Source: a bacterium (lineage in GTDB: Bacteria > UBA8248). Taken from it: DNA of 64,000 bases. The stretch covers positions 1,344,001 through 1,408,000 of the forward strand of contig OZ241875.1 in the NCBI GenBank assembly GCA_965203325.1, given 5' to 3'. Made by a program: the position numbers and the translations under genes. Positions 10,138-46,423 of the stretch are shown one piece after another. Each line of letters begins with the position of its first letter. The stretch's first letter is position 1. Below the pieces are notes generated by a model, which was not told where the DNA came from, did no database searches, and saw nothing but the letters and a program-made list of their open reading frames with translations.

Positions 10138-11640
10138 CTAGCGCGGCATGAGGTTCCTGATCTGCGCCTCGAGCGGTTCGGTGGTGAGCCGCCGGTAGCC
10201 GAGGTGGCGGGAGAGGGAATCGCCGTCGTGGCGCTGGCCGTCGCGCCAGATTTCCGCCAGGAATCCGCCGCTCTTTTGATTGGCCCACCACTTTTTGCCG
10301 AACCTGGTCTTCAGGACTTCGGCCATCTGCGCCTGCAGCATCCACGCCCGAAGATAATTCGCGCAGTAGAAAAACGGGTCCACGTCGTCGAGATAGGAGA
10401 CGCCAGGGTATTCCACACCCGTCGCCGCGCTCAGCTTCTCCTTATAAGCGGCATCCTTGCCTTCCAGACCTGCGCCCTGATGGAGCGTCAACTCATAGTC
10501 GATTTTCGCCGCATAGCGCCTGAGCATATAGAGTTCGAAAAGCGCGTGATGCGCCAGAAACGCCGCGTAGTCCGACGCCTCCCCGCCCAGGGCGTCTTCC
10601 AGCCAGAGCGGTTCGAATAGAAGGTGATCGAAGAGCATGGCGAACCCCTCCGTCACGGAGTTGTCCCCCAGGCGCTTCCACTCGAAAGGCGCATCCGCCG
10701 CCACGCCCGCGAAATGAAGCGCGTGGCCGAGTTCGTGCCAGAACGCGCGGTAATCGTCATAACCGCCCCGGGGCCTGATGACGAGATAGACCTCATCCGG
10801 CACGTTCAAGGAAGCGCAAAACGCGCGGGGGCTCTTCAGCGGGCGGTCCTCGATGTCGAGGCGCACCCTGCCCTCCGCCGAGAGATCGAGGCCCATCGAC
10901 GCGCAAATCTCCCGCGCAGAAGTTTCGATCTTCTCCGCCGGGAAAAGAGCGTCATACTCCGCACCCCGAAAACAGTACTGCGCGTCGTGTCGCTGCGCGG
11001 ACGCCGGGGGAACCCCCGTCTGGCTCAGTTCCTCTCCCATCGCCTCGGCGTAAAGCGCTTCGGTGCGTTCGAGAAAGTGCTGCATCTCTTCACGAACAGG
11101 CTCAAGCGGGTAGCGTTTGAGCGCCGCCATCATCCCCAGGTAGCCATTGAACCCCAAATCATCGGCCATCTCGTGGGTCGTGCGATGAATTTGCTCCAGA
11201 AATTCGTTCTTATCCCCTAAGGCCTCACAGCGGGCGTTTTCCAGAAAACGCCGCTTCTCTCGGTCCGATTCGTTCAGGAGCGCGACGGCGCTTTGCCGGT
11301 AGGGGATGGATTCGCCCTCGGACGTTTTCACGGTGGTTTTGGTTTCGAAGAGAAGCGCCTGCTCGCTCAACTCCCTCGTCGCGTCGCGTATGTGGCCCAG
11401 GGTCAGAAACCCGCGCAACTCGGCCAATTTCAGGGCTTCGCCCGCATCTTCCTCCGGTCCGGCGAGGGAAGCGAACGCCTCGACGTTCTCGCGCGTGAAG
11501 AGATCGGCGTATTCGGCGAAAATCTCGCTTATGCGCACTTCTTCCTTGAGACCGGCGCCGACCTCGTACCACTCTTTTCGCGATTCGCCGAGAAAAGCCT
11601 CGGCGCGGGTCCTGATTTCCGATATTTCCATTGAATTCAT
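10138..11640 (-). CDS. M3-like (gluzincin) metallopeptidase
   Basis: KSPRAFC, HELGHALH zinc motif, downstream VTEGFAMLF third ligand. Confidence 0.72.
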   Translation of the reverse strand: MNSMEISEIRTRAEAFLGESRKEWYEVGAGLKEEVRISEIFAEYADLFTRENVEAFASLAGPEEDAGEALKLAELRGFLTLGHIRDATRELSEQALLFETKTTVKTSEGESIPYRQSAVALLNESDREKRRFLENARCEALGDKNEFLEQIHRTTHEMADDLGFNGYLGMMAALKRYPLEPVREEMQHFLERTEALYAEAMGEELSQTGVPPASAQRHDAQYCFRGAEYDALFPAEKIETSAREICASMGLDLSAEGRVRLDIEDRPLKSPRAFCASLNVPDEVYLVIRPRGGYDDYRAFWHELGHALHFAGVAADAPFEWKRLGDNSVTEGFAMLFDHLLFEPLWLEDALGGEASDYAAFLAHHALFELYMLRRYAAKIDYELTLHQGAGLEGKDAAYKEKLSAATGVEYPGVSYLDDVDPFFYCANYLRAWMLQAQMAEVLKTRFGKKWWANQKSGGFLAEIWRDGQRHDGDSLSRHLGYRRLTTEPLEAQIRNLMPR

Positions 11641-14495: not shown

Positions 14496-14903
14496 ATGCG
14501 TTATCTGGTGCGCGGAAAAGTCATCGAGGGCAAGAGCGCCGCCCTGCTCGAAGCCATCGAATCGGGCGAACTCGGGCGAGGCTCCATCGCGCACCGGACG
14601 TTTCTCAAGTGCATGAAAGAGGCGAGGCTCACCGAGAAAGGCCAGGTTCGCTGGCTTGAGGTCTGCTACTGCCGCGAGGCGTTCGGGCCGGGTTATGAGC
14701 TGTATGAGGAACTACCCTACTGGGAGGCGTATTTCGAGGAGATCGACGTGCGCTTCGCCCGCAAACTTGAAGATTGCGAAGGCTATCCCGTCTGCGGCGA
14801 TTGCGACTGCACGGAAAAGCTCGAGGCGAAACTCGAAAAACTGGGAATTCCCTTCTTCAAGCATCTGAAAGAAACCGCATCCTCCCCTGAAGCTTCAACT
14901 TGA
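14496..14903 (+). CDS. hypothetical Cys-rich protein
   Basis: 135 aa, GGAGG RBS, CYC and CxxxxxCxxCxC clusters. Confidence 0.7.
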   Translation: MRYLVRGKVIEGKSAALLEAIESGELGRGSIAHRTFLKCMKEARLTEKGQVRWLEVCYCREAFGPGYELYEELPYWEAYFEEIDVRFARKLEDCEGYPVCGDCDCTEKLEAKLEKLGIPFFKHLKETASSPEAST

Positions 14904-15881
14904 ATCGGCCCACCGGGACGGTCCCTGGCTCTTGGTGAGCTTCCACCTGTCATGGATCCATAAATACTGCTCCGGTCCTTTTCGGACTAATTTTTCCGTC
15001 TCCTCGTTCACCAACTTTGTAAGCCTCTCCATCTCTTGCTTCGCACTTTTTGCGTTCATATCGGGCGCTATCGGCTCGCTCAGCAATATCTCATAGCGCC
15101 GGGCGTCGCCTTTCCTCAGGCACGAGATGAGAACGAGGGGCCGGTTGTACAAAACCGCGAGTGCTGCGGGAGCGGGCGTCGTCCTGGCGGGCCTGCCGAA
15201 AAACGGCGCGTCAATCCCCTCGCCTCCCGCGTTCTGATCCGCCAGAATCGCCACCGAGCGGCCCTTGCGCAGCGCCTCGCGCAGGTGGAAGAAGGCGTTT
15301 TTCTTCGAAAGAATCTCCTGCCCCGACGATGCGCGCATTTCATACAGCGAGGCTTCGAGCTTTCGGTTGTCCAGGGGACGCACGGGGACGGTGAGCGGAA
15401 TCCCCGCCAGCGCGCCGGCATGGGCGAGAAATTCCCAGTTCCCCAGATGCGGCACGACGAACACGCAGCCGCCCGCATCTTCGTGAATCGCGCGCACCTT
15501 ATCTATCGTATCCTCCGCGTCGTCCACTATCTCGCGCACCGTTTTCTCCGCGCGTCGCAAGTCGAAGCGGGTGAGAAATTTCGCTCCCTCCAGACAGGTG
15601 AGGATGAACGAACGGCAACTGCGCCTCGCAAGATTCAGGCGCTGCGCCTCGTCGAGTTCGGGGAACGCGATGCGCAGGTTGGCGCGCGCGATGCGCCTTC
15701 TCCTGGGAGCGAACCGGAAAATCGCCTCTCCCGCGGCGGCGGCGACCGCGCGGCAGACACCGTAGGGCAGCAGGCGGATCAACCTCAGAAACGAAGCGAT
15801 CACGGCGTATTCCACCCATTGGTGAAGCGCGCCCTTGTCCTTGCTGCGCTTTCTCCCGGGGCGCTTCGCGGATTCGTTCAC
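14895..15881 (-). CDS. lipid A late acyltransferase family (LpxL/HtrB-like)
   Basis: HLGNWE, ILADQ, PFFGRPA, PEQYLWIHDRWK; GTG start overlaps upstream stop (GTGA). Confidence 0.88.
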   Translation of the reverse strand: MNESAKRPGRKRSKDKGALHQWVEYAVIASFLRLIRLLPYGVCRAVAAAAGEAIFRFAPRRRRIARANLRIAFPELDEAQRLNLARRSCRSFILTCLEGAKFLTRFDLRRAEKTVREIVDDAEDTIDKVRAIHEDAGGCVFVVPHLGNWEFLAHAGALAGIPLTVPVRPLDNRKLEASLYEMRASSGQEILSKKNAFFHLREALRKGRSVAILADQNAGGEGIDAPFFGRPARTTPAPAALAVLYNRPLVLISCLRKGDARRYEILLSEPIAPDMNAKSAKQEMERLTKLVNEETEKLVRKGPEQYLWIHDRWKLTKSQGPSRWADSS

Positions 15882-17176
15882 TGCGCGGCGACGATGGTCG
15901 CGGAGGATTGCCCGCCGATGCCGTGACTCAGGGACAGGAACGCGGCCCCGGCGACGGCGCATTCTTCGGTGGGGATGTGGAGGGCCTCGAAGGCATCGTC
16001 TTTTTGCTCAAAGCCCGGCGTGGGCGGAAGGCGGCCCTCTTTGAGGGCGGAGAGTCCCAGCACGATCTCGGCCAAATCGCTGGCGGAGCCCATGTGTCCC
16101 GTATAGGGCTTCCAGCCAGCAAGCGGAACCGGGTCCTTCGCCATATCGCCGTATTCCAGCAAGGCGGAGAGTTCGCCCGCGTCTCCCAGGGGCGTCGCAC
16201 TCCCGTGGGGAAGAACGAAGGCCAGATCATCGCTCGTGACGCCCGCCTCGGCCACCGCCGATTCCACCGAATGGCGCACCGCGCCGGTGGGAACGGGAAT
16301 ATAGCGCTCAGAGGAGTATTCCTGGCAGTTCGCCGTCCCCAGAACGCGGCCCAGGGGCTTCGCGCCCCGCGCACGGGCGGATTCGGCGCTCTCGAGCACC
16401 AGGGCGGCGGCGCCCTCTCCGGGGAAGAATCCATCGCGTCTTTTATCGAAGGGCCGGAACGACGCGGCCCCATCTTTCGCCCGGGAGAGAATGCCCAGCC
16501 CGTCGAGTTCCAGGAGCACCATGGGGTGCGCCCAACTCCCGCAGCCCACGACGAGGCCGACGTCGGCCTCGCCGAAGCGAAGCACGCGATCGCAATTCTC
16601 GAGCGCCTGCGCGCCGCAGGATGAAAGGCTGGAAAAACTGCCGTTCGGCCCCATGAACTCGTAGATGCCCGAGAGATAGCTGAAAAGATTGTTGGGCAAT
16701 CCCTCGAGCAGGAAAAAAGGGCTTACCCTGTGGAGCGACGCCTCGTTGAGGGAGGCGGGTTCGGGCGCGTCCCACGTCTCGCCGGCCGTTTGTTTGAGAG
16801 CGGCATAGAAATCCACATAGCCCACCCTCGTAAAATCACCCGAACCGACGTAGAGGGACTTTCTCTCGGGCGCCACCTCTCCCATGTCGAGACCAGAGCA
16901 GGCCACCGCCTCGGCGGCGGCGTAAAGCCCCAGGATGGAGCTCCTGTTCAGGAATTTGCGCTGGCTCGCGAGTTTGGGCGGCACCTCGGGCGGGTCTTCA
17001 TGGCCGGGGATGGCGCCATGGTAGGCGAAATTATCCGGAAGAGAACCGTTATCCTCGCTTGGATGACAGGCGACCCCGCATTTTCCGGCGCAAAGCGACT
17101 CCCAGTTTTCCCCGGCATTCTCGCCTATGGAAGTCAGCAACCCCACGCCCGTAATCCAGACTTCCTCGCCTCGCAT
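15878..17176 (-). CDS. beta-ketoacyl synthase-like protein, catalytic Cys apparently replaced by Ser
   Basis: KS motifs (ITGVG, RPFDKRRDGF, HGSAT, GH); active-site loop SFSSLSSCGAQA versus TITSACAAAGQA in the intact paralog. Confidence 0.8.
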   Translation of the reverse strand: MRGEEVWITGVGLLTSIGENAGENWESLCAGKCGVACHPSEDNGSLPDNFAYHGAIPGHEDPPEVPPKLASQRKFLNRSSILGLYAAAEAVACSGLDMGEVAPERKSLYVGSGDFTRVGYVDFYAALKQTAGETWDAPEPASLNEASLHRVSPFFLLEGLPNNLFSYLSGIYEFMGPNGSFSSLSSCGAQALENCDRVLRFGEADVGLVVGCGSWAHPMVLLELDGLGILSRAKDGAASFRPFDKRRDGFFPGEGAAALVLESAESARARGAKPLGRVLGTANCQEYSSERYIPVPTGAVRHSVESAVAEAGVTSDDLAFVLPHGSATPLGDAGELSALLEYGDMAKDPVPLAGWKPYTGHMGSASDLAEIVLGLSALKEGRLPPTPGFEQKDDAFEALHIPTEECAVAGAAFLSLSHGIGGQSSATIVAAQ

Positions 17177-17179
17177 CGC

Positions 17180-17641
17180 TCATCCCGCCTGGCTCAACCG
17201 AATCTCGCGTCCGAGAACGCGAAAATGATGGCGCTGCTCCTCGGGATCCTCATAATCCGCGAGCGGCACCGCCTTTCCGCCAAAATCGGCGACCACCCGA
17301 CGCTCGCCCTCCACGGTGGCAACGCCCCGGAAGTTCTTGAGACCGTCTTCCTCTCCCCGCGCCTCCACGTTCAGGAGGACCTGATCCCCCGGAAAGGCGA
17401 ATCCATAGTACCTGACGCTTCGAACCTTTTCCAAAAGAATCCACCGGGTGAAATCGGATTCCGCCGCTTCGAGCCAGCCTGCCAGCTGCACCAGGCCTTC
17501 GAATATCAGCGCGCCCGGCATGACGGGAAACCGGGGAAAGTGAAACTCAAGAAAATCCTCGCTCATCGTAATGTTCTTCACCCCTTCGATGGAGGCCCCC
17601 GCCTCCCACGCCGTTACCCTGTCCACAAGCATATATCTCAA
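17180..17641 (-). CDS. FabZ-like 3-hydroxyacyl-ACP dehydratase
   Basis: MRYMLVDRV, HFPRFPVMPGALIFE. Confidence 0.88.
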   Translation of the reverse strand: MRYMLVDRVTAWEAGASIEGVKNITMSEDFLEFHFPRFPVMPGALIFEGLVQLAGWLEAAESDFTRWILLEKVRSVRYYGFAFPGDQVLLNVEARGEEDGLKNFRGVATVEGERRVVADFGGKAVPLADYEDPEEQRHHFRVLGREIRLSQAG

Positions 17642-17650
17642 AACAAACTC

Positions 17651-18067
17651 CTAGCCGGCTTCTTCCGGCGCGTCTTCGCCCAGGAGAATCACCTGTGCCA
17701 CCGCCAACTCCAGCGTATGGCTCATCGAAATCGTTAGCTGATTGATCTTCTTTCGTGCGCTCATGCGCTCCATCGAACCGCTAAGCTTGAGGCTGGGCTT
17801 TCCCGATGCCGCCGATTCCACTTCGATCTCGCGCAGCCGGCCCCTGCCGCCCAGTCCTCCCGGTTCGGATATCCCGAGGCCGAAGGCCTTGAGGCAGGCT
17901 TCTTTCGCCGCGAAGCGGGCAGCAAAGTGGGGATAGGGATTCCGGCGCTTCAGGCAATACGCCCGCTCGGCTTCGGTGAACACGTCCTCGCCGAACGCTT
18001 CGTGGCGTTCGTAGGCCTCCTTCAAGCGCGCAACCTCCACTAAATCCACCCCCTGGTACAGACGCAT
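17651..18067 (-). CDS. acpS: holo-ACP synthase (phosphopantetheinyl transferase)
   Basis: GVDLVE, FTEAE, ARFAAKEACLKA, GKP, ISMSH. Confidence 0.92.
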   Translation of the reverse strand: MRLYQGVDLVEVARLKEAYERHEAFGEDVFTEAERAYCLKRRNPYPHFAARFAAKEACLKAFGLGISEPGGLGGRGRLREIEVESAASGKPSLKLSGSMERMSARKKINQLTISMSHTLELAVAQVILLGEDAPEEAG

Positions 18068-18085
18068 CCCGAATATCCCCCGCAC

Positions 18086-18838
18086 TCAGCCGGTGAGCAG
18101 ACCGCCGTCCACGGCTATCGCCTGTCCGTTGATGTAATCCGACTCCGCCGAAGCCAGGAAGACCACGAGCCTGGCCACGTCCTCTGGTTCGCCGAAGCGG
18201 CCCGCCGGTATGCGTCCCATAATCACGTCGCCGCCCTTCTCGCGCACGCGCTCGCTCATGTCGGTGACAATCATGCCCGGCAAGATGGTGTTGAACTGGA
18301 TGCCCCTCTTTCCCATCTCGGCGGCGCAGGCGCGCATGAAAGCGATGATGCCCGCCTTGGCGGAGGCGTAGTTCGTCTGTCCGGCCCCGCCCGAAACCCC
18401 CATGACGGAGGAGATGCTGATCACCTTGCCGGAGCGCTTCCGGAGCATGATCTCGCCGGCCGCCTTCGTGCAGTGGTAAGCGCCGTCCAGGCTCACGCCG
18501 AGCACCTTGCGCCAGCCTGCGGGCTTCATGGTGAGCAGCAAGCCGTCCTGTATCACGCCCGCGTTGTTGACGAGAATATCGAGCGTGCCGAAATCCTCTT
18601 TTACCTGCTCGAACATCGCCGATACGTCCTCGAAAGAGGAGACGTCGGCCTGGTAGGTATTCGCCTGCCCGCCGGCCGCCTCGATCTCCCCCCTCAACTC
18701 CTCGGCGGCCTCCGCCGAGCGGCTGTAGTTGATCGCCACCGAAGCGCCCGCCTCGGCCAGGGCCGTACAGCAGGCGCGCCCGATGCCCCGCCCGCCTCCG
18801 GTCACCAGCGCGATTTTTCCGCTCAAATCGATTTTCAT
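18086..18838 (-). CDS. fabG: 3-oxoacyl-ACP reductase (SDR)
   Basis: TGGGRGIG, NNAG, GQTNYASAKAG, IPAGRFG. Confidence 0.9.
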   Translation of the reverse strand: MKIDLSGKIALVTGGGRGIGRACCTALAEAGASVAINYSRSAEAAEELRGEIEAAGGQANTYQADVSSFEDVSAMFEQVKEDFGTLDILVNNAGVIQDGLLLTMKPAGWRKVLGVSLDGAYHCTKAAGEIMLRKRSGKVISISSVMGVSGGAGQTNYASAKAGIIAFMRACAAEMGKRGIQFNTILPGMIVTDMSERVREKGGDVIMGRIPAGRFGEPEDVARLVVFLASAESDYINGQAIAVDGGLLTG

Positions 18839-18855
18839 TCCGTATCACCTCTCAT

Positions 18856-20121
18856 CTAGGCCGCCTTTCTCACGAGCAAGGTGGCGTTTTGCCCGCCGAA
18901 ACCAAAGGAATTCGTGATGGCGGCGGGCACGGGCATCTCCCTCGCCCCCCCGGCCACATAGTCGAGATCGCACTTCGGGTCCGGGTTCTCAAGGCACGTC
19001 GTAGGATGCACGATATCGCGCGCGACGCTCAAGGCCGTGAAGATGAACTCGGGCGCGCCGCAGGCGGCGATGAGATGCCCGATCATGGATTTGGACGAAC
19101 TCACCGCCAGCGCATCCGCCCGCGCGCCGAACACCTCGCGAATCGCCCTGGTCTCGACCGGATCGTTGAGCTTCGTGCCCGTGCCGTGCGCGTTGACGTA
19201 GGCGACATCATCAGGAGCCAGGCCCGCATCCTCCATCGCTTCGCTCATCGACCGAACGGCGCCCCGCCCTGCCGGGTGCGGCGCCGTCACCTGATGGGCG
19301 TCCATGCTCGCGCCGTAGCCCGATAGAACAGCGTAGGGCGCAGCGCCCCGCGCGCGCGCATGGTCTTGCGATTCCAAAACCACCACGCCCGCCCCTTCGC
19401 CCACGGCGAGACCGGAGCGTCTTCTGTCGAAAGGACGGCAGATGGGGTCTTTCGATTTGGAGGCCGCGCCCAGCAGGAGGAATATGGCCATCCCGACGGG
19501 ATGGATCATCGAATCGGCCCCGCCGCAAAGAACCACCTCCGCCTCGCCCCTGCGGATCATGCGCATCCCGATGCCAATCGCCTGCCCCGCCGCTGCGCAG
19601 GCGGAGGTGATGGTGCCTGTGGGACCGGCGAGTTCGAACCACTCCGCCATCAGGGAGGTCGCACGCTCGGGCGGGTTGTTGAAGTAACCGGAGGCTTGCG
19701 TCATCTCAAGCTCTTCAGCGAAGCGGGCGGCGTCGAAGCCGTTTTCAGGGTCCGCCCAGGCGGCGAAATCCTCCAGCCGGTAGCTGCTCAGCCCGGTTCC
19801 CATCACCACGCCCGCGCGCTCGGGGGCATAATCGCCGGGGCGCATTCCGGCGTCCGTCATCGCGTTCTGCGCTGCGTCGAGCGCGAACAACACCCTGCGC
19901 TCCCCCTCTCCCGCATATTCCTCGGGAAGCCTCTCCCTGATGGCGCGGAGCGTCTCCTCTGAAACCTCGCCCGCTCCGGCGACGGGCAGCGCTTTCGCAT
20001 CGAAAGACGTTATCGGCGCGAGGCCCGATTCGCCGGCCAGCGCCCGCCGCCAGCAAGTCTCCACGTCGGCGCCGAGGGAGGTCACCATGCCGAGTCCGGT
20101 GATGAATACCTGTGCGCTCAT
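18856..20121 (-). CDS. beta-ketoacyl-ACP synthase II-like, intact Cys-His-His
   Basis: TSACAAAG, NAHGTGT, KSMIGH, NSFGFGGQN; ATG at 20121 overlaps upstream stop. Confidence 0.9.
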   Translation of the reverse strand: MSAQVFITGLGMVTSLGADVETCWRRALAGESGLAPITSFDAKALPVAGAGEVSEETLRAIRERLPEEYAGEGERRVLFALDAAQNAMTDAGMRPGDYAPERAGVVMGTGLSSYRLEDFAAWADPENGFDAARFAEELEMTQASGYFNNPPERATSLMAEWFELAGPTGTITSACAAAGQAIGIGMRMIRRGEAEVVLCGGADSMIHPVGMAIFLLLGAASKSKDPICRPFDRRRSGLAVGEGAGVVVLESQDHARARGAAPYAVLSGYGASMDAHQVTAPHPAGRGAVRSMSEAMEDAGLAPDDVAYVNAHGTGTKLNDPVETRAIREVFGARADALAVSSSKSMIGHLIAACGAPEFIFTALSVARDIVHPTTCLENPDPKCDLDYVAGGAREMPVPAAITNSFGFGGQNATLLVRKAA

Positions 20122-20570
20122 GCCGTCTCCTCGAACGCCAGCCAGCCGTAGTTCCTGAAGCGCTCCTTGAGGCCTTCGGGATCGTCGTTGGGAAAGTGGG
20201 GATACACGAACCGCTCGGCCCTGGCCACCGCGACGCCGTCTTTTTCGATACGCGCGCGGCACAGGCTCGCCCGTTCGTTCGTATCGATAATCTCGCCATG
20301 AACCTCCACGGTTACGCCCGGACGCAGGTCGCTCGCCACCTCCACGTCGTCTATGAGCGATATGACGCACGAGGTCTTGAAATCATACGTGTAGATCACG
20401 AGCCACCCCGTGATCTGCGCCATCGCCTCGATGAGGATCGATCCGGGCACGCGGGGGGCGCGCCGGAAATGGGCGTTCAAATATGCTTCCGAAAGCGGAA
20501 ACGTCTTGACGCCCACGATGCGCTCGCCGCGCACCATCTCCTTGATCTGATCGAAAAAGAGAAACCGCAA
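20118..20570 (-). CDS. FabZ/FabA-like dehydratase
   Basis: RFLFFDQI, HFRRAPRVPGSILIEAMAQ. Confidence 0.85.
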   Translation of the reverse strand: MRFLFFDQIKEMVRGERIVGVKTFPLSEAYLNAHFRRAPRVPGSILIEAMAQITGWLVIYTYDFKTSCVISLIDDVEVASDLRPGVTVEVHGEIIDTNERASLCRARIEKDGVAVARAERFVYPHFPNDDPEGLKERFRNYGWLAFEETA

Positions 20571-20585
20571 TTTCCCGTTCCCCCG

Positions 20586-21776
20586 TCAAGCGCCTTTTCC
20601 CACCACCAGCCCCGAGCATACGCCGTCGAAACCCTGGAGAAGCACGAGCGCGTTTTGGAGTTCATCGCGCCCGGAGACATCCGCCGCATCCCGGAATAAT
20701 TCCTTCTCCGATGCGGGAGATGGCGGCGGCGCGCCTTCGGCCAGGGCTTTCATCGCCATAATCAGGTCCAGCGCAGGGCTTCCCCCCCAAAGGTGGCCGA
20801 ATACGCCCTTCGTCGCAAGCCCCCAAGGTTTATGATCCCCGAAAACGGCGGAAATCGCTTCCGCCTCCGCGCCATCCACCCGAGATTCCCCTTCCCCATG
20901 AATCACGAGAAGGTCGACCCCCTCGGGCTTGATCCCGGCACACGCGAGCGCGCCCTGGGCCGAATCTTGAATTGCCCGGACGAGGCCGCCTCTTTTTTCA
21001 AGGGCGCGCACGGAAGAATATCCTTTGAGCCAACCTAGTACTTTAGATGTGTCGGCATCCTCAGGACTATTGAGGCGAATCACGCCCGCTCCCTCGCCCA
21101 GCCCCCCCGCAGCGGGCCATGCGCCCCGCCGCTTCGCGCGGGCCAGCATTCTTGCGGAAACCACCCCGCTCACGCCGGCGCAGAGAGCGAGTCTCGACTT
21201 GCCTGATCCGACCGAGTCCGCCGCCTCGCAGAGGGCGCGCGCCGTCGCCTCCGGGCCCGCGCTGAAAACGGCGTTCTCGCCCCGCCACCTGTGCTGAATC
21301 GCCGCCTGGCTGAAGCCTATCGCGTTCAACAGACCCAGCGGCCAAAGCGGGGGGATGGTGTCCATCCCCTCGCTGAAGAAATGCCCCAAATCCACCCGAC
21401 CTCCCGATTCCCTCACTGAGCCCACCAAATCGTCTTTATCCGGATCGACAGAGTCCATGCCAGCGAAAAAGGCGATTTCCTCTTCCGTCATCTCCGGGTC
21501 GGCGGGGGCGTCGGCCATCATATCTTGAGCCGCCGCCAGGAGCATGTGGGTGTGGTGGCCCATGATTCTCGCGCTGCGGCGATCCGCGCCGACCGATTCG
21601 GGGTCGATTCGCGCGCACCGCGCCGTTTCGATGGGGGGAAAACCGGCGAGTTCGGGGTCAGCGTCCGGAGCAAGGAGGGAGCGGCCCGCGCAAAGGGCCT
21701 TCCAGGCGGGTTCGACGCCTCGACCCGCCGCCGTTACCAGGCCGACGCCGGTGATCGGAATGGGCGGAAAATTCAC
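20586..21776 (-). CDS. degenerate ketosynthase-like protein (chain-length-factor-like)
   Basis: ITGVG N-terminus, HGEG, KGVFGH; active-site loop FSAGPEATARA has no Cys; GTG start overlaps upstream stop. Confidence 0.75.
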   Translation of the reverse strand: MNFPPIPITGVGLVTAAGRGVEPAWKALCAGRSLLAPDADPELAGFPPIETARCARIDPESVGADRRSARIMGHHTHMLLAAAQDMMADAPADPEMTEEEIAFFAGMDSVDPDKDDLVGSVRESGGRVDLGHFFSEGMDTIPPLWPLGLLNAIGFSQAAIQHRWRGENAVFSAGPEATARALCEAADSVGSGKSRLALCAGVSGVVSARMLARAKRRGAWPAAGGLGEGAGVIRLNSPEDADTSKVLGWLKGYSSVRALEKRGGLVRAIQDSAQGALACAGIKPEGVDLLVIHGEGESRVDGAEAEAISAVFGDHKPWGLATKGVFGHLWGGSPALDLIMAMKALAEGAPPPSPASEKELFRDAADVSGRDELQNALVLLQGFDGVCSGLVVGKGA

Positions 21777-23083
21777 GCGATCTCGGGACCACCCAGGCAA
21801 AGACAGGCGTTCTGCCCGCCGAAACCGAAGCTGTTGGAGAGAGCCACGCGATGGGCCTGCGTCCTCGTCTCGTTGGGCACGTAGTCGAGGTCGCACTTGG
21901 GGTCGCGGTTCTGGTAGTTGATGGTCGGCAGTATCTCCGAGCGGCGCATCCCTTCCACGGCCAGAATCGCCTCGACGGCCCCCGCCCCGCCGATGGTGTG
22001 GCCGATCATGGACTTATTGGAGCTGACGGGCATCTTCTCCGCGTGGACGCCGAACACCTCCTTGATGGCCCTGGTTTCGGTGGAATCGTTCTTGGGCGTC
22101 GATGTGCCGTGCGCGTTGATGTATTCGACGGCATCGGGCGTGAGCCGCGCGTCCTCGATCGCCTTTTTCATGGCGAACACCGCGCCGAGACCCTTCGGGT
22201 GCATGTCGGTGATGCGAAACGCATCCGAGGAATCGCCGTAGCCGAGCACTTCGCCGAGGACCTCGGCGCCTCGCGCACGCGCGTGTTCGTAGCTCTCGAG
22301 TATCATCGCGCCCGCGCCTTCGGACATCACGAAGCCATTCCGCCTCCTGTCGAAGGGCCGAGACGCGCTCTGCGGGGTTTCGTATCTCTCCACGAGCGCG
22401 GTGAGCAGGACGAACCCGAGAAACCCCACGTACGTGATGGGCGCCTCGCAGCCTCCCGCCACCATGACGTCCGCCTTCGCGTCGCGGATGAGGCGCACCG
22501 ACTCGCCTATCGCCTGCGCCCCCGCCGCACAAGCCGAGCATATGGAAACCATGGGACCCCGGCAGTCGAAATCCAAGGCGACGACCGAAGTCGCCACGTC
22601 GGACTTTCTTCTGAAAAACGTCATCAGATCATAGGCGCCGCGGCTTTTGAGGCCTTCGATGTCCCACCCGCCCTGTAAGGGATCGCTGCCTTCCGGCTTC
22701 CAGTAGGGAAAGATACGGAGCAACTCTTCGACATCGGGGTGATCGCCGTGGGAGCCGAGCGCGACGCCGATTCGCTTTCTCTCGGGAACTTCGTCCAAGC
22801 GCGCCGTCTGCGCCGCCTGGGATACGGCCACGCGCATCATCCGCACGCCCCGGGTGGAGAATTTATCGAGCCTGCGCGCAGCACCGTTTTCCTGCGAGGC
22901 TATCCACTCGTCGTCCACCTCGCCGGCAATGCGGCAGGGAAGCTTTTCGGGGTCGAAGCGGCGGACCACGTCGATTCCCGAGCGTCCCTCACGAGCGGCG
23001 TCGAACGTGGAGGCGACGTCCCTGCCCAGGGGCGTCATCGCCCCGTATCCGGTGATCACGACCCGCCTGTCGTTACCGGCCAT
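21773..23083 (-). CDS. beta-ketoacyl-ACP synthase II-like, intact Cys-His-His
   Basis: RRVVITGYG, CSACAAG, NAHGTST, KSMIGH, SNSFGFGGQN. Confidence 0.92.
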   Translation of the reverse strand: MAGNDRRVVITGYGAMTPLGRDVASTFDAAREGRSGIDVVRRFDPEKLPCRIAGEVDDEWIASQENGAARRLDKFSTRGVRMMRVAVSQAAQTARLDEVPERKRIGVALGSHGDHPDVEELLRIFPYWKPEGSDPLQGGWDIEGLKSRGAYDLMTFFRRKSDVATSVVALDFDCRGPMVSICSACAAGAQAIGESVRLIRDAKADVMVAGGCEAPITYVGFLGFVLLTALVERYETPQSASRPFDRRRNGFVMSEGAGAMILESYEHARARGAEVLGEVLGYGDSSDAFRITDMHPKGLGAVFAMKKAIEDARLTPDAVEYINAHGTSTPKNDSTETRAIKEVFGVHAEKMPVSSNKSMIGHTIGGAGAVEAILAVEGMRRSEILPTINYQNRDPKCDLDYVPNETRTQAHRVALSNSFGFGGQNACLCLGGPEIA

Positions 23084-23127
23084 TCACATGTTCTCCCGGT
23101 AAAACGGCTTGAATGAAGCCTGCGGCC

Positions 23128-23691
23128 TCAGGAGGAGAAGAGGCCCCTTTCCTCCTGCACCCGGTTCAGCCAGTTCTGGACCACTTCATCCCCGCTGGGC
23201 AAAGAGGCGGGTTCGTTCGTCTGCGCGCATACGATGCGCGTTCCATCCTCGGCCTTCCAGTCCGCCCCCGCCGGGCTCTTCTCGGGCAGGCAGTTCAGTA
23301 CGTCGCGCACCGCGCCCGCCAGCGTCTTCGGCGTAACGAGGGCCGGCAGCTCATCCACGGGGATGCCGGGCTCGAGATCCGCAGCGGCTTCGTTCAAGCG
23401 CAGCCTCAAGACCTCGACCCCGGTTTCCGTCACCTCGCTCTCCTCGTTGATGGCCACACCCTCGCCGAACATCTCCTCCACGTGCTCCAGAACGAAATTG
23501 CGCGCCATCTTGATGCCGAACACCTGCTCGAGGCGAAAGTTCACGTCCAGAAAATCGAGCGACAAGACGCCCAGGTCGTCCACCAGGGAGCTGTCCGGCT
23601 CGATGGTTTCCTCGTCGATTCCCGTGGTGTGGGCGATCGCCTTTTTCACCTCTTCCAAAATCGTATCGTCTGATACCAGGTTTTGCGACAT
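23128..23691 (-). CDS. atypical long acyl carrier protein (187 aa)
   Basis: N-terminal ACP signature DDLGVLSLDFLDVNFRLEQVFGI followed by about 100 extra residues. Confidence 0.8.
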   Translation of the reverse strand: MSQNLVSDDTILEEVKKAIAHTTGIDEETIEPDSSLVDDLGVLSLDFLDVNFRLEQVFGIKMARNFVLEHVEEMFGEGVAINEESEVTETGVEVLRLRLNEAAADLEPGIPVDELPALVTPKTLAGAVRDVLNCLPEKSPAGADWKAEDGTRIVCAQTNEPASLPSGDEVVQNWLNRVQEERGLFSS

Positions 23692-23826
23692 GGTTGTCCT
23701 CTGTAACGATCAAGCGCGGCCCGTCCTCGTGTAGGGACGCATGCAAACCTCCCCCACGCATCCAAGCGTATACAACCAAGGAGGGGAACGAAAATCAACC
23801 TTCTCCGAGGAATCTCCCCCGCTCCA

Positions 23827-24609
23827 TCACCCCGGGGGGCGGTTCAGGCGGTTGCTGAGTCCCCTGTCGACCACGAGGATCTGCCCGCGTATGGAAGCCG
23901 CGCCGGCGCCCGCGAGAAAATAGACGGATTCCGCCACTTCTTCCGGCGTCACGAAATAACGCTCCGGCAACTCTTCCAGCTCCGGCTGAACCATGCGCAG
24001 CGTCTTGAACGAATCGGTCTTCACCAGCCCCGCGCAGACGGCGTTGACCGATACGCCTCTCTCCTCGAAACTTTCCGCCCAGTGCCTGACCGCCGCCTCC
24101 ATGGCCGCCTTCATGGGCCCCAGCGGGTATTCGGGGTGATAAAAGCGGCCCCCCAGACTCGATATGAACACGACGGCCCCGCCCTGGCGCGAGAGCAGCG
24201 GAAGCGCCCCCTGCAGGCAGAAGACGTTGCCCAGAAAATTCGTCTCCACCAAGAGCTTGAGGTCGCGCTCCAGGAGCTTCTCCCACGGCTTGAAGGGCGC
24301 GCGCGCCGCGTTCAGGACGAGCACGTCGAGTCGCCCGAACTCCTCTTCCACCTGCGCGAACATGGCCTTTACGGCGTCTTTTTTCGAAATATCCGCAGGG
24401 ATGGCGACCGCCCGTCCTCCGGCGGCCTCAAACTCGCGGCAAAGTTCGTCCGCCATCTGGACGGACCTGCCCTTCCCGTCCCTGTGGTTCAAGGCCAGAT
24501 GCGCGCCCTCGCGCGCGAATCGCCACGCAATGGCCGCGCCGATGCCGCGCGAGCCGCCGGTCACCAGAACGACCTTATCCTTCATATCCGCCGATTCAGG
24601 GGCGTTCAT
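23827..24609 (-). CDS. SDR oxidoreductase, FabL-like enoyl-ACP reductase
   Basis: TGGSRGIG, LNAA, SSLGG...YPLGPMKAAMEA, GQILVVDRG; first gene of the FAS cluster; start codon uncertain. Confidence 0.7.
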   Translation of the reverse strand: MNAPESADMKDKVVLVTGGSRGIGAAIAWRFAREGAHLALNHRDGKGRSVQMADELCREFEAAGGRAVAIPADISKKDAVKAMFAQVEEEFGRLDVLVLNAARAPFKPWEKLLERDLKLLVETNFLGNVFCLQGALPLLSRQGGAVVFISSLGGRFYHPEYPLGPMKAAMEAAVRHWAESFEERGVSVNAVCAGLVKTDSFKTLRMVQPELEELPERYFVTPEEVAESVYFLAGAGAASIRGQILVVDRGLSNRLNRPPG

Positions 24610-35867: not shown

Positions 35868-36641
35868 CTAAGAGCCGATGACGCCCGCCAGCGGACTCGA
35901 CGCCGTGGCGTAGAGCTTCATGGGGATGCGCCCGGCCTCGTGCGCGAGCCTGCCCGCCTCGACGGCGAGGTTCATGGCGCGCGCCATCTTCACCGGATCG
36001 TCGGCCCCCGCGATGGCGGTCTGCATCAGGACGGCGGCGGCGCCGAGTTCCATGGCCACCGCGGCGTCAGAAGCCGTGCCCACGCCCGCGTCCACGATGA
36101 CGGGAACCGATACCTGCTCCAGGATGATCTTGAGGTTGTAGGGATTCCGGATGCCAAGGCCCGAGCCGATGGGTGCTGCCAGCGGCATGACGGCGTGGCA
36201 GCCCAGTTGTTCCAGCTTCTTGCAGATGACGGGATCGTCGATGCAGTAGGGCAGCACGATGAAACCGTCATCCAGCAGAATCCGGCACGCCTCGAGCAGA
36301 CCCTCGTTATCCGGGAAGAGCGTGTCCTCGTCTCCGATGACCTCGACCTTCACGAAATCGGAGCCTGTGGCCTCACGCGCGAGTCGCGCCGTCGTCACCG
36401 CGCTCTTCACGTCGTAGCAGCCCGCCGTGTTGGGCAGCATCGTATACCTGTCCTTATCGAAATGCGCCCAGAAGCCCTCGGAGGAATCGTCTTCCAGGTC
36501 CACGCGGCGCACCGCGACGGTGACGATTTCCGTCCCGCTCGCCTCGAGCGAATCGCGCATCACGGCGAAACTCGGATATTTGCCCGACCCCACCAAAAGG
36601 CGGGAAGTGAACGTCCTGCCCCCAATCTCGTACGTGCTCAT
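35868..36641 (-). CDS. thiG: thiazole synthase
   Basis: [44 protein letters not shown]. Confidence 0.97.
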
Positions 36642-36692
36642 CGCACCCCCTCCCGGCGCAGGCTCGGTGGCCGCGCCCGTTTTCACGTATGA

Positions 36693-36951: not shown

Positions 36952-36972
36952 CAGAAACACCCGGATTCTTCG

Positions 36973-37060
36973 GCCCGCTTCCCTTCGCTGGAATTACCCA
37001 GTGCAGGTTCCAAGGGTTGCCCGCGATTCCAGGCTCTCAGTACATACACCCCTAGCAGGG
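36973..37060 (-). promoter_or_regulatory. TPP riboswitch
   Basis: Minus strand CTAGGGGTG...CTGAGA...ACCCTTGGAACCTG...GGTAAT.CCAGCGAAGGGAAG upstream of thiS-thiG-thiE. Confidence 0.92.
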
Positions 37061-37221
37061 ACTTCCTCCAAAGAGCATATACGGATGCGGCCCGACTTGC
37101 AATGCCCGAAGAGAACCGGCGTGTGCAATTCGCGCCTTTTTCGGGTAAGAATACGAAAAACCATACGATATCGCCGGGTTCAATGAGCCTCGCGCATCCC
37201 CATCGACCGAGGAGCAGCCCC

Positions 37222-39057: not shown

Positions 39058-39292
39058 CGCGTCTTCCTTCCCGTTTTCGCTTCGTCAAGAATTTCTCCAG
39101 GATACGTCTGCTTCGCACGTATAAGATTACCACACACAATCAACTATCTTTATACGATTCAAAAGGACCTCGTTTTCCGTTCGTTACCCTCCCCTTTGTC
39201 CTCTCCTCTCGAAATCCCCCGTTTGGACACCTGCCGCCGCTTTCTGGTAATCTGCTCCCGCCTGTCCCACCCCATCCCGCCGGAGGAGAGCC

Positions 39293-39922
39293 ATGGCCAT
39301 CATCGACATATCCGTTCCCGTAGTGGAAGGCGAAATGCCCATCTACCCCGGAAATCCCGGGCTTTCGATGCGCTTTCACAAATCCTTTGACGCAGGCGAC
39401 GACGTCTGCCTCACCGAAGTCACATTCGGCGTGCACGCCGGCACGCATCTCGACGCGCCCATGCACTACCTGCACGATGCGGGCGGCATCGAGACGCTGA
39501 ACCTCGAAACCCTCATGGGTCCCGCCCGGGTCATCGCGGTCGAAAACCACGAGTGCATCACGGCGGAAGAACTAGCGACCAAGAACCTCGAAGGCGCGAC
39601 ACGCTTTTTGATCAAGACGCGAAACTCCGACGAGGGATGGTGGTCGAAGCCCTACAGCCCCGACTACTGCCACATGACGGCAGATGCCGGGCAACTCCTC
39701 TACGACCACGGCATGACGCTTCTGGGCGTGGACTATCTCGGCGTGGACGCGCCCGACCCGAACGTGCCCGTCCACTCGCTGCTGCTGCCGCTGGGCGTCG
39801 TCCTGCTCGAAGGGCTGAACCTGAGCGATGCGCCCGAGGGGGATTACGAGCTCATCGCCCTGCCCGCCCTGTTCCCGGGGCGAGACGGTGCGCCCGCGCG
39901 CGCGGTTTTGAGGCCGCTCTAG
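39293..39922 (+). CDS. cyclase family (kynurenine formamidase-like) metal hydrolase
   Basis: IIDIS, YPGNP, HAGTHLDAPMH, LLEGL, DGAPARAVL. Confidence 0.9.
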   Translation: MAIIDISVPVVEGEMPIYPGNPGLSMRFHKSFDAGDDVCLTEVTFGVHAGTHLDAPMHYLHDAGGIETLNLETLMGPARVIAVENHECITAEELATKNLEGATRFLIKTRNSDEGWWSKPYSPDYCHMTADAGQLLYDHGMTLLGVDYLGVDAPDPNVPVHSLLLPLGVVLLEGLNLSDAPEGDYELIALPALFPGRDGAPARAVLRPL

Positions 39923-40047
39923 CCCTTTCTCGAATCCGGTTTCTCATTCCTGACGCGGACCGGCTCACGCGGAGAGTCCGCCTGGGCGCAGAGCACCCCC
40001 GCATCCGGGAGCTTTGAAAATCCCCAAAACATCGGTGAAAAATCTTC

Positions 40048-41010
40048 TTACTCCAGATTCAGGTGCGGGAGCACCTCCTCTGTGAATCGTTCCAACTGGC
40101 CCATTTGATCCCGGTGGGTGAAGCGCAGGGAGATGTGCGCAGCCCCTGCTTCGATGAAGGCGTTGATGCGCTCTATCAGGTCTTCCGCGGGGCCATACGT
40201 GCCCCACTTCTCGATGGAATCACCCCAGAAGGGGGTGTAGTAGTAATCGAGCAAAAATTCCTCGCCGTTTTTCATCGCCGATTCCTTGTCGTCGTCGATG
40301 CAGGTGGTCATGTACCACGCGGGCGTACCGGGGTCGCGTCCGTTCTCACAGGCCAAGCGGACGATTTTTTTCCAGGTGTCGCGGAACTCCTCGGGCGTCA
40401 CGCGGTTGGGGAACCAGCCGTCTCCAAATTTCGCCACCCTCTGCCACGCGGTGTCCACTGTGGCTGAGGCGATCCACATGGGCACGGTCTTCTGGATGGG
40501 CTTGTGCGCCAAGGTGACGTTTTCCACCTGGTAATACCTGCCCTCAAAGGTCACGTCCTCCTCCGTCCAGAGCCTGCGCATGAGCGTCATGTGCTCCTGC
40601 ATGTAGAACATGCGCTTTCTGAACGGCACGCCCAGGGTCTCGAACTCATGCACGCACTCCTGGGGCTTCGGCGGACCGATGCCGACGCCGAGGATGACGC
40701 GACCGCCCGAGATGACGTCGAGCGTCGCGACCTGATAGGCGAGGAATACGGGGTCCCTGAGGCAGGGCAGAAAAACGGCGGTGCCGAGCTTCACGCGCTC
40801 GGTTCTCACGGCCACGGCGGAGAGCACGCTGAGCGCCTCGAGTCTCGGTTTGGCGAGAACGGAATCCCCCACGAACACGGAATCGTAGCCGAGTTCCTCC
40901 GCACGCACGGCCAGGTCGATGACGGGTCCCACCTCCGGGACACCTGTGTTCCAGAGCAGCACCCCGCGCGTGGGGAGAAGCACGCCGAGTTTTACTTTTC
41001 TATCCGCCAC
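40048..41010 (-). CDS. LLM-class flavin-dependent oxidoreductase
   Basis: AEELGYDSVFVGDS, TERVKLGTAV, ATLDVISGGRVILGVG, GDGW. Confidence 0.9.
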   Translation of the reverse strand: MADRKVKLGVLLPTRGVLLWNTGVPEVGPVIDLAVRAEELGYDSVFVGDSVLAKPRLEALSVLSAVAVRTERVKLGTAVFLPCLRDPVFLAYQVATLDVISGGRVILGVGIGPPKPQECVHEFETLGVPFRKRMFYMQEHMTLMRRLWTEEDVTFEGRYYQVENVTLAHKPIQKTVPMWIASATVDTAWQRVAKFGDGWFPNRVTPEEFRDTWKKIVRLACENGRDPGTPAWYMTTCIDDDKESAMKNGEEFLLDYYYTPFWGDSIEKWGTYGPAEDLIERINAFIEAGAAHISLRFTHRDQMGQLERFTEEVLPHLNLE

Positions 41011-41018
41011 TTCAAGGC

Positions 41019-42401: not shown

Positions 42402-42411
42402 CTCGCGCGCC

Positions 42412-43203
42412 TTATTCGGCCCAGGAGCCGCGATCCGTATAGGGATTTTCGAGGGGCGGCAGGGGGGGACCGCCATCGCGGGGCGGCTCCTCGTCCCAGA
42501 ATTCGACCGCGATGACGCGCGCGGGCGCGCCCTCGGTGTCCTTGAGCTTCACCGCGCCCGTCACCAGCAGGACGCGCTCTTTCTGGATGGCGCCCATGTT
42601 CGTGCACCACTCGATGAGGCATATCCCGCGCTCCAGGAACTTGATGTGGTTGGGGCTCCAGTCAGGCGCCGGCCACTTGCGCTCCTCGGGGGGATGGAGC
42701 GGCGAGTCGCACGTCATGAAATCCTGGACGAGCGCCTTGATGCCCCTCTCGATGAGCCAGTCGGCCGCGTCGGTCGAGAGATACACCATGTGCTCCCAGA
42801 AATCGCGCGAGCCCCACATGCGGTCGGTCCATTCGGTGCTGACGATGGCGATGTCGCCGGGGCGCACCTCCACGCCTGTGGCTTCCAGGTCCTCGGCCGT
42901 CACGGACTCGGAATTGCCCTTGCCCGGCACCTTGAGCACGCAGGCGTCGCCGCATACGTGATCGAGCGGCAACTCGTCGTTCTTCAGCCCGTCGTGGAAG
43001 AAATGATAGGGCGCGTCGTAATGCGTGTAGCTCTGCGTGGTGGTGGTGAAGCCGAAGTTGCAGATGTGGTCCACGTCCAGCGTCGCGATGGGGGTGATGG
43101 TCGTGCCCGGAGCCGGCTTGTCGTAAATCTCATCGCGCGGAAACTGAACGTAGGTGTCCTCCGGGTCGACGGTGAGCGAGAGATCGACGAAGCGGTACGG
43201 CAT
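42412..43203 (-). CDS. cyclase family protein (variant motif)
   Basis: FVDLS, QSYTHYDAPYH, LIEW, EGAPARVIA. Confidence 0.8.
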   Translation of the reverse strand: MPYRFVDLSLTVDPEDTYVQFPRDEIYDKPAPGTTITPIATLDVDHICNFGFTTTTQSYTHYDAPYHFFHDGLKNDELPLDHVCGDACVLKVPGKGNSESVTAEDLEATGVEVRPGDIAIVSTEWTDRMWGSRDFWEHMVYLSTDAADWLIERGIKALVQDFMTCDSPLHPPEERKWPAPDWSPNHIKFLERGICLIEWCTNMGAIQKERVLLVTGAVKLKDTEGAPARVIAVEFWDEEPPRDGGPPLPPLENPYTDRGSWAE

Positions 43204-43364
43204 GGCTTTCCCCTTGTTGGAGCAAACGGTTTTTGAAATGGAAGCTCCCGCCGCCCATCCCCGGACGAACGGCGGGAGTCGAACCCTAGTTCATGAAGCG
43301 ATATCTGAACTCGTTACCAGCCTGTAAAGGCGGCGGCGCACCTCCCCGCCGCTTGAACCATCAA

Positions 43365-44339: not shown

Positions 44340-44399
44340 GTCGAAAACTCCTCTGTTGGAAATAACACGAATATGCTTCCGTCTATGATGCGTTTTTCG

Positions 44400-46304: not shown

Positions 46305-46423
46305 GAATAAACGCCAGACGCATCAGGCAGCGTCTCACATGAAAATTACAAGCATATTACGAGCGCATCGAAACTCATTCCCGCTTATCCGGCAGTCTCA
46401 TTCCCGGACATGCAGCGCCCATG

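Follow-up and report, generated by a model that had tools for sequence, protein, structure and literature searches.

A probable accessory type II fatty-acid synthase cluster with an extended carrier protein and a proposed role in lipid acylation, in uncultured bacteria

Introduction

Which acyl chain would be built, and onto which acceptor would it be placed, by a bacterial gene cluster that combines an extended acyl carrier protein (ACP), four proteins of the 3-ketoacyl-ACP synthase (KS) fold and an acyltransferase of the LpxL family? This question is raised by a run of eleven genes in a 64-kb stretch of bacterial DNA (contig OZ241875.1, positions 1,344,001 to 1,408,000; G+C ~63%), which is referred to below as the window and from whose first letter its coordinates are counted. 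Our comparative analysis makes it highly probable that these genes encode an accessory type II synthase combined with acyl transfer to a membrane lipid (the accessory status being judged within the 64-kb window). The more specific proposal that the acceptor is lipid A and the chain a long one has, in our estimate, a somewhat better than even chance of being correct. The sequence comparisons described below are best read as pointing to an uncharacterised pathway that is an expanded analogue of the rhizobial AcpXL/LpxXL system and probably acylates lipid A. An earlier note on this DNA had put forward such an analogue as an undescribed pathway, and no characterised cluster matching it was found in the literature searched or among the curated NCBIfam models.

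Gene content and organization of the cluster

The open reading frame (ORF), Pfam and NCBIfam assignments agree one for one on eleven intact genes occupying positions 14895-24609 of the minus strand, in the order that had been claimed for them. In the direction of transcription, the cluster begins with a short-chain dehydrogenase/reductase (SDR), a probable FabL-like enoyl-ACP reductase (23827-24609; adh_short_C2, 2.2e-48; start ATG at 24609, alternative ATG at 24636), followed by the long ACP of 187 aa (23128-23691; PP-binding, 1.6e-07, residues 14-70) and by KS1, a FabF-type ketoacyl-ACP synthase predicted to be active (21773-23083; ketoacyl-synt, 7.3e-37, and C-terminal domain, 2.8e-33). The next gene encodes KSL1, a KS-fold protein with Pro in place of the nucleophile (20586-21776; Pfam KS domains, 1.2e-09 and 7.1e-14), and is followed by those for DH1, a FabZ-like 3-hydroxyacyl-ACP dehydratase (20118-20570; FabA domain, 7.5e-12), and KS2, a second ketoacyl-ACP synthase predicted to be active (18856-20121; Pfam, 1e-38 and 2.7e-35). 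Further downstream are a FabG-type 3-oxoacyl-ACP reductase (18086-18838; adh_short_C2, 4.6e-64), an AcpS-type phosphopantetheinyl transferase (PPTase; 17651-18085; Pfam ACPS, 1.6e-15), which passes TIGR00516 with 67.7 bits against a cut-off of 59.8, a second FabZ-like dehydratase, DH2 (17180-17641; FabA domain, 4.2e-18), KSL2, a KS-fold protein with Ser replacing the catalytic Cys (15878-17176; Pfam, 8.4e-25 and 4.4e-14), and, in the terminal position, the LpxL-family (PF03279) acyltransferase (14895-15881; Lip_A_acyltrans, 2.7e-52). By its predicted gene content the cluster carries all four elongation activities together with its own PPTase and its own carrier.

The genes are closely packed. 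The 4-bp stop/start overlaps mentioned in the earlier note are present at three junctions (GTGA for KS1/KSL1 and for KSL2/LpxL, ATGA for DH1/KS2), and the FabG and AcpS genes abut directly (gap 0). The start codons of the KSL1 and acyltransferase genes were assigned from the overlap junctions and the beginning of the Pfam matches. A scan for promoters and terminators gave counts not above shuffled expectation (1 site vs 1.6, and 11 vs 9.3), and Rfam returned no match within the cluster. The absence of fabD, fabH and plsX from the window, also claimed previously, was borne out by tblastn with E. coli PlsX, FabH and FabD (no match at E≤1e-3) and by Pfam, which detected none of the corresponding domains among 49 other ORFs of the window; these showed unrelated functions only.

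Distribution and synteny

A scan of 185,579 species, with one genome per species, identified the carrier family in 232 species-representative genomes. The best 80 of these 232 carrier-encoding genomes were used for the locus counts given below, the genes of each locus being classified by BLAST against the window proteins; in 62 of the 80 loci the downstream sequence beyond the ACP gene amounts to 8.6 kb or more, and the other 18 are cut short. The titles of the locus records point to Nitrospinota/Nitrospinaceae, Ca. Tectomicrobia, Nitrospirae/Thermodesulfovibrionia, NC10, Syntrophobacteraceae, a "delta proteobacterium" and one Chloroflexota metagenome-assembled genome (MAG), and every record title or source name seen is that of a MAG or an uncultured isolate. 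The cluster is known so far solely from uncultured lineages. The closest loci (L001-L003) share 97-98% ACP identity with the window.

At least eight of the nine genes downstream of the ACP are kept in the same order in 40 of the 62 loci; the arrangement is far beyond chance. In 16 of the 62 only the SDR-ACP-KS1 triad is present, and six are partial. The synteny of the acyltransferase, on which the earlier note had staked its proposal, stood up well: the gene is found in 37 of the 40 full clusters, and the informative ones among these number 38, since two of the exceptions (L071 and L078) stop at the locus edge and the third (L063) has other genes in this place. The cluster forms a discrete module: the block from the SDR to the acyltransferase gene stays together while the flanking genes vary by lineage, and because the flanks differ in this way the block acts as one unit. 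Three Syntrophobacteraceae loci (L038, L048 and L059) lack KSL1 and KS2 only and keep all other genes. Exactly these two being missing together weakly suggests that KSL1 and KS2 may act together, the joint absence amounting to one evolutionary event.

Comparison with the rhizobial AcpXL/LpxXL system

A tblastn search of PLSDB with the acyltransferase retrieved Sinorhizobium and Shinella replicons carrying the gene string acpXL-fabZXL-fabF2XL-fabF1XL-adh-lpxXL. The ORFs of the Sinorhizobium record, in which frameshifts interrupt both FabF1XL and the adh gene, were identified by NCBIfam as AcpXL (NF005079), FabF2XL (NF005084), FabF1XL (NF005076) and LpxXL (NF005120). A role of the acpXL-lpxXL cluster in lipid A carrying very-long-chain fatty acids is described in PMC5613085.

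The analogy drawn in the earlier note between the window cluster and this system held for the carrier and the acyltransferase, whose closest named families are AcpXL and LpxXL. The best NCBIfam match of the window ACP is to NF005079, with 50.8 bits (under the cut-off of 83; a genuine AcpXL scores 189.5), and that of the acyltransferase to NF005120, with 140 bits (under the cut-off of 273; Sinorhizobium LpxXL scores 470). In BLAST comparisons with two references each, Shinella AcpXL outscores E. coli AcpP for all 80 ACP orthologues, and for 40 of 41 acyltransferases the score to LpxXL exceeds that to E. coli LpxL, the remaining one being a tie. In the same kind of comparison, limited to FabZ versus the rhizobial reference, DH2 is nearer to E. 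coli FabZ in 51 of 51 cases and DH1 is split 25 to 27. The KS-fold proteins fail the models of the rhizobial synthases (KS1, 337 bits vs the NF005076 cut-off of 629; KSL2, 73.6 vs the NF005084 cut-off of 320).

A further common feature was found in the segment aligned to residues 104-140 of FabF, a region that presumably caps the acyl pocket. It comprises 35-38 aa in FabF, FabB, ApeO and ApeR, 46-54 aa in the four KS-fold proteins of the window and 49-56 aa in FabF2XL and FabF1XL. The insert is common to both systems in its position, which does not imply homology of the inserts themselves. The extended carrier and the KS insert shared in position with FabF1XL/FabF2XL suggest, by analogy, a product that may be long or even very long, like that of the AcpXL/LpxXL pathway, in which an (omega-1)-hydroxy very-long-chain acyl group is placed on lipid A.

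Taken together, the likeness to the rhizobial system includes a dedicated ACP (with AcpXL as the nearest named relative of the window ACP by NCBIfam, BLAST, PDB sequence and fold), an LpxL-family acyltransferase that closes the operon and has LpxXL as its nearest named subfamily, a Cys-containing KS beside a Cys-less KS-like protein, a FabZ-like dehydratase and a KS insert at the same place. On the other hand, the window cluster has two KS, two KS-like proteins, two dehydratases, its own FabG, FabL-like SDR and AcpS, and no zinc-dependent alcohol dehydrogenase; the earlier description of a more elaborate system (four KS-fold proteins, two dehydratases, its own PPTase and reductases) is thereby confirmed by Pfam and NCBIfam. 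Its ACP is twice as long and bears a C-terminal domain apparently derived from a zinc ribbon, its KS proteins are not orthologues of the rhizobial ones, all scores are under the curated cut-offs, and it occurs in uncultured Nitrospinota, Nitrospirota, NC10 and Syntrophobacteraceae, not in Alphaproteobacteria. The best-supported interpretation is that the window cluster would operate in the manner of the AcpXL/LpxXL system without belonging to it.

The extended acyl carrier protein

The homologues of the window ACP (124 proteins at E≤0.001) are all 180-192 aa long, the source names seen among them being MAGs. All 81 sequences compared have the phosphopantetheine Ser, and the C-terminal extension of ~115 aa is conserved across homologues. 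More distant relatives have a CxxC...CxxC pattern in the extension, and the clade of the window ACP has lost three of the four Cys with the rest of the domain conserved (alignment columns ~138-165, residues ~135-160). Judged from this alignment, the C-terminal domain is a four-Cys zinc ribbon in the relatives that has become degenerate in the window clade.

An AlphaFold2 model built from the homologue alignment shows one compact fold (predicted local distance difference test score, pLDDT, 91.3). Compared with the PDB by Foldseek, the model matches best the "specialized acyl carrier protein" 3lmo/2kw2 (122 aligned columns, with a marginal E of 1.7e-3). This entry also heads the PDB sequence matches by phmmer (43.3 bits vs at most 31.7 for ordinary ACPs). 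Since Shinella AcpXL matches this entry at 4.6e-44, 3lmo/2kw2 is, on sequence similarity, an AcpXL orthologue. The window ACP fails the AcpP equivalog model TIGR00517 (35.7 bits vs the cut-off of 70.45).

With the profile of the ACP family, a library of 1.84 billion proteins yielded 484 representatives at a threshold of E≤1e-10 and 24 at the stricter one of E≤1e-30. Many of the matches are 180-205 aa long and aligned end to end, and a second group, of ~130-145 aa, aligned solely to positions ~7-133; none of the ten proteins of this second group picked among the 150 matches listed reached any curated ACP model. A stand-alone version of the C-terminal domain was represented by just five short matches, probably fragments, and the ESM Atlas search with the ACP gave unnamed PP-binding clusters only.

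Catalytic residues and phylogeny of the KS-fold proteins

The active-site residues of the KS-fold proteins were read by alignment to E. coli FabF (K-12 record) and counted among 217 KS-fold ORFs from related loci with BLAST alignments of >300 aa. All 77 KS1 sequences have Cys at the position of FabF Cys164, and both His and the Lys are kept; in KS2, the Cys is found in 47 of 48, and the window copy retains Cys/His/His/Lys. In KSL1 this position is never Cys (P in 13, A in 31, G in 2 and S in 3 of 49 sequences), the window copy having Pro. KSL2 shows a third pattern, with Ser at the Cys position and His304, Lys336 and His341 each conserved in 43 of 43. Since the Ser and the His/His/Lys set are kept throughout, KSL2 is, by its pattern of conservation, constrained to retain a working His/His/Lys pocket. 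KS enzymes in which the Cys is changed to Ser or Gln decarboxylate malonyl-ACP. The rhizobial FabF2XL differs again, having Glu at the catalytic Cys position and having lost the first His too.

By overall similarity KS1 is FabF-like: it is 43% identical to E. coli FabF and scores 435 bits with NF005589, a FabF subfamily model whose cut-off is 387. Its BLAST scores are 262 bits to FabF, 236 to FabF1XL, and 185 and 155 to the KS proteins of the aryl polyene (APE) cluster, and in a PDB search FabF (335 bits) comes before the actinorhodin KS (231 bits). The best PDB match of KSL1 reaches just 60 bits.

A quick maximum-likelihood tree was built for 49 KS-fold proteins, including the four of the window, their orthologues from 12 of the 80 loci chosen for taxonomic spread, and, as references, E. 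coli FabF, FabB and ApeO/R/C and Shinella FabF1XL and FabF2XL. Compared with these FabF, FabFXL and APE references, the window proteins fall into four separate clades of their own: KS1 (13 rows, support 99), KS2 (10 rows, 100), KSL1 (9 rows, 95) and KSL2 (10 rows, 100). No reference is nested inside any of them (several references are on long branches, and the tree tool flags their placement as unsafe). Because of these four own clades free of references, the four KS paralogues are, as far as the tree allows us to judge, old and specific to this type of cluster and not orthologues of the XL or APE proteins.

The remaining enzymes retain the residues expected for activity. The FabZ-type catalytic pair is conserved in DH1 (His54 and Glu68 of FabZ, 53 of 53 orthologues) and DH2 (His and Glu, 52 of 52), as is the Ser/Tyr/Lys triad of FabG in 47 of 47. 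The window FabG is 41% identical to E. coli FabG; it scores 281.6 bits with TIGR01830 (below the cut-off of 297.75) and passes the FabG subfamily model NF009466 (239 vs 222). The His-x4-Glu of the acyltransferase aligns with H132 and E137 of E. coli LpxL and is conserved in 42 of 42 orthologues; we take His-x4-Asp/Glu to be the catalytic dyad of the LpxL family. The first SDR of the cluster was called FabL-like in the earlier note, and this description survives in part: the best matches are to FabL in NCBIfam (NF005975, 185.4 bits) and to the NADPH enoyl-ACP reductase 3oic in the PDB (127 bits), but the equivalog cut-off for FabL (328 bits) is not reached. Its score with the FabG model TIGR01830 is only 121 bits against the cut-off of 297.75. 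The Tyr-x5-Lys motif is invariant in 77 of 77 aligned orthologues and is one residue shorter than in 3oic, the FabL spacing being, as we assume, Tyr-x6-Lys. On these similarities the SDR is likely an enoyl reductase.

Proposed pathway and its acceptor

From the observed gene content, catalytic residues, synteny and nearest families we infer the enzymatic steps, the protein pairings, the chain length and the acceptor in the following way. The in-cluster AcpS would turn the 187-aa ACP into its holo form, and malonate would be loaded by the housekeeping FabD, which is invoked because none is encoded in the cluster. KSL2 (Ser-His-His-Lys) could either decarboxylate malonyl-ACP for priming or act as a non-condensing partner of a KS. 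Condensation would be carried out by KS1 and KS2 (Cys-His-His), with KSL1 as a partner resembling a chain length factor (CLF). FabG would then reduce, DH1 and DH2 dehydrate, and the FabL-like SDR reduce the enoyl intermediate, and the LpxL-like enzyme would transfer the finished chain, most likely to lipid A in a secondary acylation.

The acyltransferase itself is a clear member of PF03279 (178.2 bits, passing the cut-off of 22.3), and its best named subfamily is LpxXL. A genomic link to lipid A is seen in one Nitrospirota lineage, where 12 of the 80 loci have gnnA/gnnB 2-4 kb upstream of SDR-ACP-KS1 and five of these 12 also have lpxD-(fabZ)-lpxA-lpxI. The arrangement can be followed in L052 (2020-7163 of this locus), and likewise in L034, L041, L054 and L074, as lpxD-fabZ-lpxA-lpxI followed by the genes for a GFO-family oxidoreductase and a DegT aminotransferase; if read as gnnA/gnnB-like, the latter two would imply a lipid A of the diaminoglucose type in that Nitrospirota lineage.

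Several observations weigh against lipid A, against a long chain or against the assignment of individual enzymes. The chain length is argued by analogy. No lpx genes were found in the window, and the lpx neighbourhood is confined to the one lineage and split from the cluster by an opposite-strand SLT/LysM gene. The subfamily cut-offs are not reached by either the ACP (50.8 vs 83) or the acyltransferase (140 vs 273), and the KS proteins are nearer to E. coli FabF than to FabF1XL and form clades of their own, not with XL. The Tyr-x5-Lys of the SDR seems to fit neither the FabG nor the FabI/FabL spacing. The PDB scores of the acyltransferase are near level for a lipid A acyltransferase (45.6 bits) and a phosphatidylinositol mannoside (PIM) acyltransferase (40 bits), and one full cluster (L039) comes from a record titled Chloroflexota. 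Furthermore, in six loci the acyltransferase position is followed by a co-oriented protein of ~360 aa and/or a free-standing condensation-domain protein (L043, 19224-20549; L063, 18115-20456; L065, 18695-20483; L070, 18798-20550; L069, 19099-20545; L039, 10803-11270). The condensation-domain protein belongs to PF00668 (about 1e-10), the ~360-aa protein is without a family match, and neither occurs in the window. With both extra genes and no acyltransferase, L063 makes other acceptors possible.

These points lead directly to the best placed of the alternatives, which we nonetheless consider unlikely, namely that the same synthase operates but the LpxL-family enzyme acylates some other acceptor, such as another glycolipid, a lysophospholipid or the precursor of an amino-lipid or lipopeptide. 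PF03279 indeed includes PIM acyltransferases (the PDB chains just compared are of the PatA type), and the NCBIfam "lysophospholipid acyltransferase family" model gives 126 bits; the six loci with added genes, the missing acyltransferase of L063 and the absence of lpx genes from the window fit this alternative as well. Set against it are the match to LpxXL as the best named subfamily, with 40 of 41 orthologues nearer to LpxXL than to E. coli LpxL, a carrier nearest to AcpXL, locus record titles that are nearly all of diderm phyla, and the lineage in which the cluster lies near lpxD-lpxA-lpxI-gnnA-gnnB.

Other synthase types

A polyene pigment cluster, aryl polyene-like or of another kind built on a KS/CLF pair as in type II polyketide synthases (PKS), with a product lipid-anchored by the acyltransferase, is a much poorer candidate that we hold to be very unlikely. 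The APE cluster of E. coli CFT073 does resemble the window in combining KS with CLF-like, Cys-less partners, two dehydratases, a FabG-like ketoreductase, ACP(s) and an acyltransferase in one operon. However, among the eleven genes and their flanks there is no acyl-CoA synthetase (CoA ligase), thioesterase, LolA-like or MMPL export component, glycosyltransferase, methyltransferase or second ACP. The acyltransferase is of a different family, having no BLAST match to the APE acyltransferase at 1e-3, the enoyl-reductase-like SDR belongs to the conserved core, and KS1 is nearer to FabF (262 bits) than to the APE KS proteins (185 and 155). The tree does not join the KS-like proteins reliably to the APE chain length factor, the tool having marked this join as a long-branch attachment.

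There is equally little to recommend the notion that the locus is a housekeeping fatty-acid synthase (FAS), or that its SDR-ACP-KS1 triad is a divergent fabG-acpP-fabF. The enzyme folds are the same as in the E. coli FAS locus (plsX-fabH-fabD-fabG-acpP-fabF), the SDR-ACP-KS order mirrors fabG-acpP-fabF, KS1 passes the FabF subfamily model NF005589 (435 vs 387), the triad stands alone in 16 of the 62 loci, and in one triad locus a fabD lies ~2.7 kb upstream. Against this, the ACP is 187 aa long and fails the AcpP model (35.7 vs 70.45), the SDR is not a FabG (TIGR01830, 121 vs 297.75), and FabD, FabH and PlsX are absent from the window and from 79 of the 80 loci by tblastn. The presence of two Cys-less KS-fold proteins, an own PPTase and an own acyltransferase is likewise at odds with the E. 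coli arrangement. The long ACP is found in only 232 of 185,579 species representatives, none of the record titles or source names seen being that of a named cultured member of these phyla, and the eight downstream genes are variably present among related genomes.

Among elongation systems the mycobacterial FAS-II, which extends meromycolate chains by means of AcpM, KasA/KasB, MabA, HadAB/BC and InhA, offers a functional analogy for very long chains. It is likewise elongation-type, with a C-terminally extended ACP, two KS, an SDR enoyl reductase and paired dehydratase subunits. The window proteins differ from it in their scores with the AcpM model (26.5 bits vs the cut-off of 146) and the KasA/KasB model (264 vs 560), in having FabZ-like dehydratases and in the LpxL-type acyltransferase that closes the operon.

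Two further candidates were rejected. In a type II PKS the CLF typically carries Gln instead of the Cys, with cyclases/aromatases nearby, whereas KSL1 has P/A/G/S and KSL2 Ser in this position and no cyclase domains were seen among the eleven genes and 49 other ORFs, so that a KS-alpha/CLF pair was dismissed; a ladderane-type cluster was set aside because neither radical-SAM nor anammox-type genes were seen by Pfam/NCBIfam in the cluster or by Pfam in its flanks.

Neighbouring genes and other features of the window

The cluster is flanked by GlgA and GlgC downstream and by PAC2, Dtd, DUF2400, NAD kinase and RecN upstream (Pfam). As a clue to function the flanking genes were ruled out, not being conserved between lineages. 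Convergent with the end of the cluster is a Cys-rich ORF of 135 aa (14496-14903, plus strand) with a CYC motif as well as a CEGYPVCGDCDC stretch; neither Pfam nor NCBIfam gave a match for it, and counterparts with 68-97% identity occupy the same position in Nitrospinota-type loci. On the far side of glgA-glgC, on the same strand, lies a gene for a 500-aa protein (10138-11640, minus strand) with a weak M3 oligoendopeptidase-like match (35.5 vs the cut-off of 442). Three Thermodesulfovibrio-type loci have co-oriented NMO-family genes upstream (L057, 6360-7691; L044 and L072, 4155-5267), which were considered as candidates for FabK and rejected, the likeness being weak (95 bits vs the cut-off of 453).

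Elsewhere in the window, a thiamine pyrophosphate riboswitch (Rfam RF00059, 58.6 bits; 36963-37063, minus strand) lies upstream of thiG (35868-36692, minus strand), and a single tRNA-Ala (GGC) is located at 54871-54946 on the minus strand. The block at 39251-49845 encodes a UbiD-family decarboxylase, two luciferase-like monooxygenases, two proteins annotated as "putative cyclase", an M24 peptidase/creatinase-like protein and a TRAP-type DctM with an NMT1-like binding protein, a gene content that suggests a role in the catabolism of aromatic or heterocyclic acids.

Implications

A bolder version of the proposal, which we regard as speculative and rather improbable, is that of a self-priming very-long-chain synthase in which the strictly conserved Ser-type KSL2 takes the place of FabH through malonyl-ACP decarboxylation, the zinc-ribbon ACP shields the growing chain, two KS/KS-like pairs divide the chain-length range between them, and the outcome is a very-long-chain, possibly membrane-spanning, lipid A. 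If this were true, uncultured Nitrospinota, Nitrospirota and NC10 would possess such a lipid A, and a possible new lipid class would exist in those lineages that add the condensation-domain enzyme. The pathway would then exist in parallel with the rhizobial AcpXL pathway and might predate it, and the extended ACP would found a carrier family of several hundred clusters (484 at E≤1e-10).

The analogue of the AcpXL/LpxXL pathway favoured here would already have consequences of its own. Automatic labels such as "FabF" and "Kdo2-lipid IVA lauroyltransferase" mask what appears to be a coherent uncharacterised operon, and its enzymology has on offer a Ser-type KS-like protein, KS partners devoid of a nucleophile and a zinc-ribbon ACP. 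The dedicated carrier pathways described for unusual lipid A chains, which stiffen the outer membrane, come mostly from rhizobia and from a small number of intracellular pathogens. A larger and distinct version of such a pathway across several uncultured phyla, including relatives of nitrite oxidisers and sponge-associated lineages, would widen the known range of outer-membrane lipids, and the cluster would supply candidate lipid biomarkers for these uncultured groups.

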